Shown one piece after another: positions 1 through 6,146 of a stretch of DNA of 45,394 nucleotides. Position 1 is the first letter of the stretch. Each line of letters starts with the position of its first letter. The translations under genes and the position numbers were made by a program. Source of the DNA: Craspedostauros australis (taxonomy: Eukaryota). The notes under the pieces were generated by a model. The model was not told the DNA's origin. It ran no database searches and was given only the letters and a program-made list of their open reading frames with translations. The stretch covers positions 1 through 45,394 of the forward strand of contig JALAGF010002121.1 of NCBI GenBank assembly GCA_030167865.1, written 5' to 3'.

Positions 1-123
1 GGCCGCATTGGCGTTGAGGACTACATTGAGTTCTGCGATGGACTCGTATGTGGGTACCCCGACGATGGGTTCGACGATTGCCTGCGGAAAGGTGGCGAGG
101 ATCTTCTCGTGGCTGTTGGCCAT
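1..123 (-). CDS. Gag/ORF1 N-terminus of a copia-like retrotransposon (partial, runs off the window)
   Basis: My translation is MANSHEKILATFPQAIVEPIVGVPTYESIAELNVVLNANAA. The FP..+.PI.G.PTYESI..L...LNANAA pattern is one I recognise from diatom LTR-retrotransposon ORF1 proteins. It is missing from the ORF track because it is truncated. Confidence 0.7.
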   Translation of the reverse strand, partial: MANSHEKILATFPQAIVEPIVGVPTYESIAELNVVLNANAA

Positions 124-177
124 GGTGATGATTTTTGGTGATGCTGGTCTTGGTGACCGAGATTTTCAAACGTTGGC

Positions 178-236
178 TATTAGCGAACAACTGTCAATAA
201 GACGAGTAGTGTGTGAATCAATGTTGTTCGCTAATA
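178..236 (-). promoter_or_regulatory. PBS-position sequence plus its perfect 14-bp complement inside the LTR (candidate self-primer hairpin)
   Basis: Plus strand 178-191 TATTAGCGAACAAC and 223-236 GTTGTTCGCTAATA form a perfect inverted repeat with a 31-nt loop. One arm directly abuts the LTR terminus at 192. Confidence 0.75.
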
Positions 237-382
237 TTATGAGATATTACATTGCTGAGCTGAGGAGTTGCGGTCTTGGCTCCTGCTAGTGTCTTGATCT
301 GCTCTAGGAGGAAAGTGGGCGCGAGGTGCGCACTTTGCGTACGGCGGTCAGTCGGGTCACGTGCGGGACTGGAATCAATACA
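192..382 (-). repeat. Putative 5' LTR (about 191 bp)
   Basis: Reads TGTATTGATT...CTTATTGACA on the minus strand, with canonical TG...CA ends. It lies 68 nt upstream of the gag ATG. Confidence 0.62.
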
Positions 383-651
383 GATCCCTTCTTCTGCGTC
401 GCGTCTGTCGCAGGCGTGGTCGACACTTGGTGGGCTGCCACTTCGTGTTCGTCGCCGCCATCATCACGATCATCGTCATTACCCAGGGTCTGCTCTTTGC
501 GCTTGTCGTTGACTTCAACGGACGATGATTCTGCTGCTGTCAATGTTGATGAACAACCGAGCGTCATTTTCCCAAGTATTCTACTTCTGTTGCCGTTGCC
601 GTTGTTCTTTTGTGATGGTCCTTTGTTTGTGTTTGCTGAGTGGATCGGCAT
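383..651 (-). pseudogene. Possible host ORF fragment interrupted by the retrotransposon
   Basis: An acidic, low-complexity ORF (…NDDDRDDGGDEHE…ATQKKGS) runs straight into the LTR start. No recognisable domain. Confidence 0.25.
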
Positions 652-989
652 CAATACAATCGTTCCTCCCTCACATTGGTGGCTTCACATTGGTTCGGAG
701 CAGAATATTTTCTTTTCTCAGGTGTCATTCTGTGGGTCATTCGTTTCCATGCTTGTTCATCGTTGTTGGTTCGTTGTGGCTGTTCCTCTTCGTAGCCGTG
801 CACGCCATCATGCGTCTCAGCCCACGCAATCTCTCCAATGAGATGCGAGTCCCATACGATCAACAGATACAAAGAGAGAGGCAGGACTGATGACATACAG
901 GTAAGTTGCTATGTTGTACTATCGCGGGTAGGATATTATCCTGTGCTCCTACTCGACACCCATCGAACTCGGTTACCTGAAGAAGAGCT

Positions 990-3900
990 TCAAGCATGGA
1001 ATTCATCACTCTCGCTGCTTTTTTCGCTCTTTCCGATGTTGCCGGTCTGACCAGATTCATCTTGGCCGCTCTTCGTTGAACAAACGGCCTCCGACAGCTT
1101 GTCAGCCAGATACGTCGGCTCATTCGGACCCACGCAATCTGCCATAGTCAAAAAGACGATGAACGAGCCCACCGATGCCTGGATGACTGTCAGGAACAGA
1201 ATCAAGGCGAACTTTTGGAAGAAGATGACGATGGTGAAGAGCATGATGGTGGCAGAAGAGATGGTGGTCACCGCCGCCGCCAAGATGGATGGCCCCATGT
1301 GAATCAGAGCGTACTTGGTCCTGATCGAACGATTCGTGTCTCCTGGCAGCAGCGCGTAGGCATGCGTGAAGTGAACCACGAAATCGACGGAAACTCCGAT
1401 GAGGATGGCGAAGCAGATGGATTCGAGGAATCCCAACGTCCACCCAAGGCCGACCAAGCTCGCCGTCACGGAAGTCAGGACGTATGCGATTGCCACGATG
1501 CAGAAGAATGTCAAGACTAGCGATCTGGACGAGAGCAGGATGACGATGGCGGCGGCTGACAGCGCAATAGCTGCCGAACCGTACGCCGTGGAAAGCATGG
1601 AGGTGTTGGTGTCGTACCACCAAAAGTCAGCAGACGAGAAAAACGCTCCATTGACGGTGCTCGGGGCGCCGGCGTTCTGCTTGCTGAACCAGTTATCGAC
1701 GGTGTTCCATTCGCCTTCCAGGACGTCGAATGGATCGTCGAAACTGGCACGGCTGGTGAAGGGAATAGTCACGACCTCCACCTTGCTGCCCTTGGCGAGG
1801 ATGTTCATTTCGTTTGTCGCCTGGGACCAAGCGATGATGCAGGCATCGAAGTTGTTCTCGTCAACAGGCATGGCCGTCGCGCCACCACAGTTGTCGGTGT
1901 AGATTGCTTCTGGATTATCTGACGATGATTGCTCCGTCAGCCACGTATCGAATGCGACGAAAGGACACACGAAAGACGAGTCTGGAAACTTCGCGAATTC
2001 CTGCTCGAAGAAGGTGCCGCAAAAGTCTTTCAGGTAGTTCTGGGCCTCCTCTGGTGCGGCGTCAAACGAGTTGTCCAAAACCAGCTGTGACCAAGACGTT
2101 GGATCGTCTGTTGTTGTTGTTGTTGTTGTTAGAAATCAGCAGGCATTTTACCGGGCAAGGAGTTGAAATGGAGGGAAATTGTGAGAACGCGCGTTTCATG
2201 TCGGCAGAGTATCAATGCTATTGCTATCGTACTGGATGTGCAGCCACCCCACAATCGCATTGCCAACTTAGGTAGCCAAACAGAATAGAGTAGAGCAGCG
2301 CCTTCTCTCAACAGTATTCGTAGAATCCTCACCATGATCACCAGTATCGGCCGGCGTCGTTCCCCACACGACCCACGCCAAACTGCCGCCGCTGCGTGCC
2401 AGCGCATCATCGAGCAGATTCTGTCGCCACAGGTAATTGCGTTCAAATTGGTGCTTGTCGCTGATGAGACGCACGTCGGCGGAGGTTGGGAGATCCAGGG
2501 TGCTGGCGATGTAGGCGGACACGGCCAGGCCGGCCATGCAGACCACCAGCAAGGGCCAGCGGATCAGATGGAGAATGTTGAAGTAGGAAGTGAGGATGCG
2601 TCGGATCAGACTGGGCCGTTCTTCTTCGCCATCGCTGTCAAGTCCGGACGGCTCCGCAACAGCGGCCTCGGCCTCGTCGTCGTCGTCTCCGCCTTTCCCG
2701 GCGCAGCACGCGATGCAACAGTTGGCTTGGTTGGCCATGACGCGACGATCGTAAATGCAAAGGGCCGGGAAGACGAGGAGGATGTTCATGAGGTAGTCGA
2801 ACATGATGAGCAGCCCGCAGAAGATGGCGAACATCTTGATGGGTGCCACGGGGCAGATGGCCGTTCCGAAGAAGGCGATTGCCGTGGTGATAGTCGTGAG
2901 GAACATGGCCTCGGCCGCGTTTGGGAATGCGATGGCGGCAATATCTTCCGTGGGGGCATCGGGGAACTCCAGTCTCGCGTTCTTCCATTTGTCGACCGCG
3001 ACGAAGATGTCGTCGGCTCCGAGCGCAAAGACGACGAAGACACCGATGAAGTTGAGGAAGGGGAAGAAGTTGAGGCCGATGGGGAAGACGTAGACGAAGT
3101 AGGCCAGCGGGAAGGAAAGGATGATCTGCAGCAAACCCAGACCCGTGAGGAAGGGGCTTCGCGTGTGGACCAAGATGGCGACGGTCGTGATGAAGGCTGA
3201 ACCGACGGCCAGGGTCATGTCGCGACCGACCGCCTCATCGCTGTACTTGTTGTTAAAGTGCTCCTCCTGCGTATCGTAGGCACCTTCGACTGTGCCGCCG
3301 CCCTGATCGAACTTGTCCACAATGCCGTAGAGCGTATCAAGGGCAGATTCCGGAGTCGCGAAGACCGACGATGTGTACGAGACGCGGCGGGTTTTGTGAA
3401 AGTCTCCGTTGACCAGGAGGGGACCAAACTCCAACGGGCACGATGATGGATAGACGTAGTCATCATCCGATGTGTAGGTATCGAGGACGTCGGCAACGCA
3501 GGTCGCCCACGTGTCTTCGGTCGTTTTCTGAAAATCTGCATCCCCCCATCCTTGGCTGAGTTCCTCGCACGTCATGTCCATGCCATTCTTGAAATGCATG
3601 CGGACGTAGAGCACCAGTCCATATGGTTGGTAGCACTCATTCTCGGTGGTGGCACACGGATTGATTTTGCAAAGGCCCCTGTCATGCAGAATTTTCTGCG
3701 TGTTGGTCTCCGCGTCGCAAATATCGCGAATGACGTCTGGACTGAGCGCGGTGTTGGAGCTGCTCTTGACCTTCCACACGGGTGATAGCCGGTACGGTTT
3801 GGCGGCGCGGCCCCAATACCAGTCCTGCTCCTCCTGGCACAATTCTTTGGTGCCCTCGCCGACGATGGGGCGGGACGTGTTGGTGTAGTCCACCTGCAGA

Positions 3901-5402: not shown

Positions 5403-5444
5403 TGTGGTTGTGGTTGTGGTTGTGGTTGTGGTTGTGGTTGTGGT
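5403..5444. repeat. (TGTGGT)7 microsatellite
   Basis: Read directly; lies in the intergenic region between divergent genes. Confidence 0.9.
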
Positions 5445-6146
5445 TTTGTCAACGCGGATTATTGCTTGGGCAGAAAGACCGTATGAATCTTCTGCCCTTG
5501 TCCGGGAAGTTTCGTCTAGTTTCGCTGTGTGTTGCGATGGACTGTCGCGCCCACCAAAGTGGAATGACATCACCTGCGCTGTGTTGAGTCAGCCCTCTCC
5601 TTGGTGCGGACTCTCTTCCCGCTTGTTCTGTCAATCTTATTGCGATTAAATGTGGCGCTTCAACTTGCGTAACCCCATTCGGGCTCATCGACTTGTTTGA
5701 TGCATTGAGATTGCCTTGTTTGTACTTCCCAGAACCTCTCGGAAGTATTTTGCTTGCCGACATACGGAATCGACGGTCACCTCCAAACACATGAAATTAT
5801 CAATAGCGAACATCCAGCCGCCAAATCAGTGTGACGATAAGTGATGAGACAAAGGAGAAGGCAGAAAATGACCGGAACTCCCTCCTTGCCGCGGTCACAT
5901 CCCATCCAACAACGCCTCTTCGTTGCTACCGCTTTGCAGTGCTACCGCGGTGTCGATACGTTGTACACAGTATTGCAGCGAATGTCGTCCCTACCGACGA
6001 ATGACAGGCGTCCACAACTAGAAAGATACCAAATCGACCCAATTCGCAGCCTCGGACCGCCGAGCATCCAACAACCACACCGACACCACTGACAACCACG
6101 CTGTCGTCATGAACGCAACACCCCTTCCACTTCCACTTCCACTTGA

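Follow-up and report, generated by a model that had tools for sequence, protein, structure and literature searches.

A copia-type LTR retrotransposon of probable diatom lineage with a conserved fold-back at the LTR end: a candidate for self-primed reverse transcription

In Tf1 of Schizosaccharomyces pombe, minus-strand DNA is self-primed by a fold-back of the transcript, an RNase H cut and extension by reverse transcriptase (RT), the steps on which the mechanism proposed below is modeled, and to our knowledge the experimental proof of self-priming is confined to the Tf1/sushi group. The available portion of PMC6317226 describes self-priming for Tf1/sushi, refers to the earlier proposal of self-priming for Houba and Osr-1, and predicts this mode of priming for the plant Ty1/copia TAR lineage that includes these two elements. 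The initial annotation of the locus analyzed here states that copia elements are normally primed by a tRNA or half-tRNA; according to the same portion of PMC6317226, half-tRNA primers are employed by several Ty1/copia lineages, among them Osser, Bryco and Bianca. The fungal copia element GalEa represents yet another arrangement, with no classical primer-binding site (PBS) and a conserved hairpin at the PBS position, for which the available portion of PMC5445492 gives neither a U5 complement to the site nor a fitting model of priming.

In diatoms, the known elements most comparable to the one considered here are those of the CoDi type. As described in the available portion of PMC2806351 (Maumus et al. 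2009), CoDi elements have the domain order PR-IN-RT-RH, LTRs that are 153-844 bp long and have TG/CA ends in 23 of the 26 families, and at most one stop codon or frameshift between gag and pol. The main text of that paper contains no mention of primer binding, tRNA, self-priming, PPT or polypurine (the abbreviation PBS denotes only a buffer), and the main text of Llorens et al. 2009 (PMC2774666) contains no mention of a PBS, a tRNA primer or self-priming. A literature search, in which candidate papers were mostly judged by title, found no report of self-priming in diatom elements.

The first base of the window analyzed here, a stretch of 45,394 nucleotides, most likely falls within an LTR retrotransposon that is of Ty1/copia type, belongs to a diatom lineage and is encoded on the minus strand. 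The portion of the element present in the window consists of the 5' LTR, the leader and 41 gag codons only, with pol, the 3' LTR and the target-site duplication located outside. The parts of the element, all on the minus strand, are as follows.

1-123, minus strand: start of a gag-like open reading frame (ORF), identified by translation, with the ATG at 123-121, 41 codons long and running off the window start.
124-177, minus strand: leader of 54 nt between the 3' arm and the gag ATG.
178-191, minus strand: 3' arm, the candidate PBS, GTTGTTCGCTAATA, beginning at base 1 after the LTR.
192-222, minus strand: hairpin loop of 31 nt ending in ...CTTATTGACA, formed by the final 31 nt of the LTR (presumably the remainder of R plus U5).
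223-236, minus strand: 5' arm, TATTAGCGAACAAC, the candidate self-primer.
237-243, minus strand: CTCATAA motif abutting the 5' arm, which may act as an initiator, with A240 as the start, or instead be poly(A)-signal-like.
192-382, minus strand: probable 5' LTR of 191 nt, TGTATTGATTCC...CTTATTGACA, with a firm 3' end and a tentative 5' end.

The LTR end is separated from the gag ATG by 68 nt, the 14-nt 3' arm included, and the 3'-terminal C of the 5' arm (223-236) pairs with base 1 after the LTR. The loop would be the template for minus-strand strong-stop DNA.

This layout resembles that of Tf1, a self-priming member of the Tf1/sushi group of Ty3/gypsy elements (available portions of PMC5445492 and PMC6317226). 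In both, the PBS directly follows the LTR and can pair with a short segment of the element itself, located near the beginning of R/U5. The two are also alike in the lack of a tRNA-type TGG and in the position of the duplex, which abuts the LTR end such that a cut at the arm would start DNA synthesis at the boundary. Unlike Tf1, the diatom element belongs to Ty1/copia, with the integrase upstream of RT and an RVT_2 domain; its arms span 10-14 nt, and at least 4 unpaired bases would precede the arm if the transcript starts at the A of CTCA. The plant TAR elements Houba and Osr-1 are likewise copia-type, and for them self-priming is predicted from sequence alone (available portion of PMC6317226); the host of TAR is a land plant whereas the host of this element is a diatom. 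With CoDi-like elements it shares the diatom host, the PR-IN-RT-RH order, short LTRs with TG/CA ends, no more than one stop codon separating gag from pol, and an overall length of roughly 5.2-5.4 kb (available portions of PMC2806351 and PMC2774666). In contrast to GalEa, a complement to the site is present 19-39 nt upstream, inside the LTR.

A repeat search identifies the two 14-nt arms, 178-191 and 223-236, as 100% complementary and separated by a 31-nt loop, so that the exact complement of the post-LTR sequence lies 31 nt upstream, inside the LTR, as initially annotated. This is the sole perfect inverted repeat of at least 14 nt with a loop of at most 60 nt in the 45,394 bases, compared to a mean of 0.02 such repeats expected per window (100 first-order Markov shuffles), and a window-wide search for the 14-mer with up to two mismatches finds no site other than the two arms. 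When 150-260 is folded as RNA, the minimum-energy structure is the 14-bp hairpin, with a z-score against shuffles of only -1.84 in this 111-nt context.

A word-indexed protein search with the 41-residue start of gag yielded no matches. A phmmer search with the same 41 residues detects 19 matches with E<=1e-3, the best one with 66% identity and an E-value of 4.5e-6. At least one of these, the repeat protein P0013, appears unrelated; the other matches have the N-terminal pattern of the window ORF. A tblastn search of the window started with the gag-like protein P0004 (401 aa) gives a match of 66.7% over 36 aa. This protein appears to be an entire gag, with a Cys/His knuckle at its C-terminus; a Pfam search identified no family in the gag proteins, P0004 included, and a word-indexed search with the 401-aa P0004 sequence found no fused gag-pol. 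With a 6-row gag alignment as the query, 25 related loci were identified in metagenome contigs, and no relatives were found with this alignment in the viral and prokaryote collections. On the contigs of the relatives, tblastn locates a gag with a length of about 400 aa and a pol with a length of about 1,200-1,325 aa.

Several of these contigs are circularly permuted; in particular, L007 contains the gag C-terminus at both ends (6-122 and 5435-5551), with a unit of about 5.4 kb. Such a permutation is expected from the collapse of two LTRs in assembly; alternatively, the contig could represent a tandem or circular form. In three contigs, gag and pol are separated by a single in-frame TGA (L008, 2209-2211; L010, 2057-2059; L011, 4663-4665), and in L008 pol is open for 1183 codons past this TGA, an arrangement that suggests stop-codon readthrough rather than a frameshift.

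The pol protein of L008 contains a DSG protease motif followed by a triad, D280/D344/E376, that is invariant in the 20-member alignment. An AlphaFold model of residues 260-520 (mean pLDDT 75) is similar to the integrases of PFV, RSV and MVV, with Foldseek E-values of about 1e-10 and a probability of 1.0. Among the 20 members of the pol family, SH3_retrovirus is detected in 8 and RVT_2 in 16, with a best E-value of 1.6e-12; in L008, RVT_2 maps to 791-942, downstream of the integrase, with a score of 21.8 bits, which is under the 31.6-bit cut-off. PDB sequence searches with pol or its profile retrieved nothing. The succession of protease motif, integrase and RVT_2 in L008 corresponds to the order PR-INT-RT-RH, that is, Ty1/copia. 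The copia domain order, with the integrase before RT, that the initial annotation had proposed to confirm was found in full-length relatives, with both the integrase fold and RVT_2 present in L008. The window element itself is assigned to copia by the homology of its 41 gag residues and of its LTR/PBS module to those of the pol-bearing relatives, given that its own pol lies outside the window. The pol family is large, with at least 725 proteins at E<=1e-5 among the 8000 scored. One homologue is named from the diatom Fragilaria crotonensis, and Atlas neighbours that bear rve and SH3_retrovirus are labelled Bacillariophyta; these neighbours are leads only.

The LTR end at 192 is supported by two lines of evidence. 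Three contigs from the public run X1, whose label as RNA is a guess and which contains 78% of the sampled words of window 1-2500, have 192-221 in common and branch exactly at 192, which identifies 192 as a repeat boundary: past this position, one contig continues into unrelated sequence and another matches base 191 only, whereas the third covers 192-307 and diverges from the window at 307/308. The X1 contigs provide no coverage of 1-190, 308-459 and 2302-2500, and the runs X2 and X3 contain nothing for the window. The second line of evidence comes from the relatives. In 20 of 20 related loci, a homologous LTR end, ...TTGTCA or ...TTGACA, directly precedes the 3' arm. Taken together, these findings uphold the original placement of the LTR end.

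The LTRs of the relatives begin with TGT(C/T)AA(T/C)TC, and in 14 of the 18 loci that include the start, it directly follows a conserved polypurine-like tract, CTGCGAGGGTG. In the remaining 4 loci, the LTR start abuts an unrelated flank, with three distinct flanks represented (L002/L006, L021 and L022), and in each of these loci the resemblance to the full-length L007 breaks off exactly ahead of TGTCAA. The LTR lengths are 168, 184, 190-191, 223-224 and 297 nt; the LTRs of 190-191 nt are those of group B, which also has the same CTTATTGACA end as the window. From the likeness to the relatives' LTR starts and the group B length, the LTR of the window probably starts at 382 (TGTATTGATTCC) and spans 191 nt, an assignment that is tentative because of the divergence of the X1 contig at 307/308. 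A start at 307 was rejected despite this divergence, as there is no TG at this position and no likeness to the LTR starts of the relatives.

The hairpin was compared across 21 sequences, those of the window and of 20 related loci; the other five of the 25 (L005, L016, L018, L024 and L025) were left out on account of short upstream sequence or a missing motif. The order of the module is the same in 21 of 21: CTCATWAA, the 5' arm, a loop of 19-39 nt that ends with the terminal CA of the LTR, the 3' arm, and gag. The motif CTCAT[A/T]AA itself is kept in 20 of the 21 sequences, with CTCATCAA in L021. Irrespective of the loop length, the stem, which consists of 9-14 pairs, begins at base 1 after the LTR in all 21. 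The pair that joins the 3'-terminal base of the 5' arm to post-LTR base 1, which had been proposed for the window, is C-G in 20 sequences and U.G in one. The lack of a TGG after the LTR, another feature noted originally, extends from the window to 20 of 20 relatives. The arms themselves differ between groups, as follows.

Window: 5' arm TATTAGCGAACAAC; 3' arm GTTGTTCGCTAATA.
Group A: 5' arm ACTTAGTAACGAC; 3' arm GTCGTTACTAAGT.
Group B: 5' arm (AAGT)TACTAACGAC; 3' arm GTCGT(T/C)AGT...
Group C: 5' arm (ATT)TAGTAACGAC; 3' arm GTCGTTACTA(ATT).

Pairing is perfect in three of the 21 sequences (14/14 in the window, 13/13 in L009 and 10/10 in L015), another 16 have one mismatch in 10-14 positions, and two (L014 and L022) are decayed copies. 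As pair 3, the window has A-T where the other sequences have G-C; at pair 8, group B has C-G, compared to G-C in groups A and C. Between the window and group A, further pairs are double-changed and one pair is inserted; these outer pairs of the window were compared with the relatives by eye, a covariance-model realignment having left the outer stem of the window out of register. In a 12-row MAFFT alignment (A4), 85.9% of the cells pair, compared to 15-47% after the partner has been displaced by 1-3 columns. The covariation score of A4 is 0.176 versus 0.108 for shuffled alignments and is reached by 2 of 500 shuffles; here, the outer 7 pairs of the window are out of register and scored as unpaired, that is, against the structure. 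Within A4, pair 13-71 is GC in 8 rows and CG in 3, and pair 19-66 is GC in 9 rows and AU in one. Of the 13 pairs, 8 are retrieved by RNAalifold, and the consensus energy is weak (-3.3 kcal/mol). When scanned with a covariance model of the module, each of the 20 loci yields exactly one match on its forward strand, and the 45-kb window has a sole match, at 174-243 on the minus strand, with a score of 45.7 bits. Close copies account for many of the 20 loci, which leaves about four independent lineages; across these four lineages, the arms differ and complementarity is maintained by compensatory changes, which is the outcome of the covariation test that the initial annotation had suggested.

The structure, its register at the LTR end, the compensatory conservation in four lineages and the copia order of the relatives are observed. 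The best explanation of the fold-back, and in our assessment a probable one, is Tf1-like self-priming of minus-strand DNA; the proposal that this copia-like family is a candidate for self-priming is thus strengthened by the copia order, the LTR end and the conserved fold-back. Under this scenario, transcription would begin at or near CTCATWAA (243-237), and the 14 nt at 236-223 would fold back onto the 14 post-LTR nt at 191-178. Cleavage by the element's RNase H, directly 3' of the 5' arm, would then free a 3'-OH, that of the last C paired with the first post-LTR base, from which RT would extend across the 31-nt loop. Minus-strand DNA would consequently start exactly at the LTR end. In the ensuing part of the cycle, in which strand transfers are likewise predicted, plus-strand strong-stop synthesis would copy the primer back into the PBS and, as a result, the arms would stay complementary while drifting, in a concerted change. 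The predicted strong-stop DNA is very short, 19-39 nt, so that R would have to reach into the loop.

As to the transcript start, an Inr-like TCATAA had been noted immediately before the arm in the initial annotation. The motif stands as a conserved feature, being contained in the CTCATWAA that is kept in 20 of the 21 sequences, but only partly fits the published initiator consensus. The available portion of PMC3599244 gives the oomycete INR as YCAYTYY, with the A as the start, and reports that INR+FPR is absent from a diatom; CTCATWAA fits the YCAY of this oomycete consensus but not the pyrimidines that follow. The motif could equally be poly(A)-signal-like instead of an initiator. No poly(A) tails were seen at the contig ends.

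Some of the mismatches in the stems are shared. An A.A mismatch at duplex position 5 (GTCGATACTAAGT versus the arm ACTTAGTAACGAC) is present in most group A copies (L001-L004, L006 and L020), and an A.C mismatch at position 6 is present in L007, L008, L010-L012 and L023 (groups A and B). Mid-stem mismatches common to several copies imply that the arm is not copied anew into the PBS every time. They show that the PBS is sometimes inherited from the template instead, which is compatible with a heteroduplex PBS after strand transfer.

That the PBS in groups A and B can be inherited without recopying from the arm is also the main point in favor of a different reading, in which a host RNA, such as an internal tRNA fragment or another small RNA, anneals to the 3' arm as the primer, while the 5' arm serves as a regulatory mimic and keeps the PBS hidden up to the time of packaging. 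The use of half-tRNA primers in several Ty1/copia lineages, including the three mentioned above (available portion of PMC6317226), lends this possibility some plausibility. However, a conserved host RNA would fix the PBS, whereas the four lineages have different PBS, each matching its own upstream arm, with double changes; furthermore, there is no TGG after the LTR, a search of Rfam with window 1-700 detects no family, and ARAGORN predicts no tRNA genes in the window or the 25 loci. On balance, priming by a host RNA appears unlikely.

Alternatively, the hairpin could be a signal of another kind, involved in packaging, dimerisation, control of gag translation, formation of the transcript 3' end or strand transfer, with priming achieved otherwise. 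The GalEa precedent, a conserved hairpin site that replaces the PBS in a fungal copia element with no fitting model of priming (available portion of PMC5445492), is in line with this possibility, as is the presence of further conserved repeats in the leader. In groups A and C, the leader contains two copies of the direct repeat CCTCTCGAACGC, located 25-70 nt past the 3' arm (L001-L009, L015, L017, L019 and L020); the repeat is absent from the window and from group B, in which the leader is only 13-32 nt long; this repeat may be a packaging or gag-binding signal. Nevertheless, the start of the stem at base 1 after the LTR in 21 of 21 sequences, despite loops of 19-39 nt, is a register that priming predicts and the other roles do not, and no alternative PBS is visible, so we regard this reading, too, as improbable. 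Finally, the possibility that the inverted repeat is a chance feature of the 5' UTR or a decayed repeat, with which the modest fold z-score would agree, is effectively refuted by the expectation of 0.02 such repeats per window and by the same architecture, with covariation, in 20 related loci, and can be given almost no weight.

Self-priming thus being the preferred reading, its novelty is moderate: the mechanism and its prediction in copia elements are already known, whereas for its occurrence in diatoms no report was found. The choice of the primer is a defining step in the life cycle of LTR elements, and self-priming frees an element from the tRNAs of the host. A diatom copia architecture that is both conserved and co-varying extends the predicted range of self-priming to another supergroup and superfamily. 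Annotation tools that depend on a PBS would call such elements 'PBS-less', and the fold-back architecture explains why; the specificity of the covariance model, with one match in 45 kb and one per related locus, makes it usable for annotating diatom genomes and metagenomes. The idea of self-priming is directly testable in culturable diatoms. A broader and more tentative hypothesis, which we consider possible without favoring it, is that the compact initiator-primer-U5-PBS module is the standard start of reverse transcription in a large diatom Ty1/copia clade and arose independently of Tf1/sushi and plant TAR, with copying of the primer driving the concerted evolution of the arms. If so, tRNA-independent priming would be a recurrent, convergent solution in LTR elements, and transformable diatoms would offer a second experimentally tractable system.

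Several further observations concern the LTR and its surroundings. In group A, the pol ORF continues for about 65-69 codons into the LTR (L007, 3940-4190; L003, 995-1195; and equivalents), and the junction of the polypurine-like tract and the LTR start, CTGCGAGGGTG followed by TGT(C/T)AA, encodes a conserved LRGCV sequence near the pol C-terminus, so that the cis element and the coding sequence overlap. A search of the window LTR for a remnant of the pol C-terminus gave weak matches only (E>=0.09), tblastn detected no pol remnant within the window, and no second copy of 1-1200 is present within the 45,394 bases. A purine-rich run, GCAGAAGAAGGGATC, at 383-397 on the minus strand, adjoins the putative LTR start on its upstream side and is similar to the polypurine tract of the relatives; with no pol remnant upstream, it may reflect chance, a target preference or the remnant of an older copy. 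The neighbouring 362-aa ORF (990-2078, minus strand) belongs to no Pfam family, and one X1 contig spans 460-2301 unbroken, stopping 78 nt from the putative LTR start. In the same run, the contig that continues past the LTR end has a word depth of 115, compared to 56 in the LTR interior, which suggests a solo or 3' LTR adjoining another locus. A fold-back is also found in L016, which is related more remotely through its gag, at about 36% identity to P0004: positions 1-45 of this contig form, from its second base, a 9-bp stem with one bulge (AATCTTACAT / ATGTAGATT).
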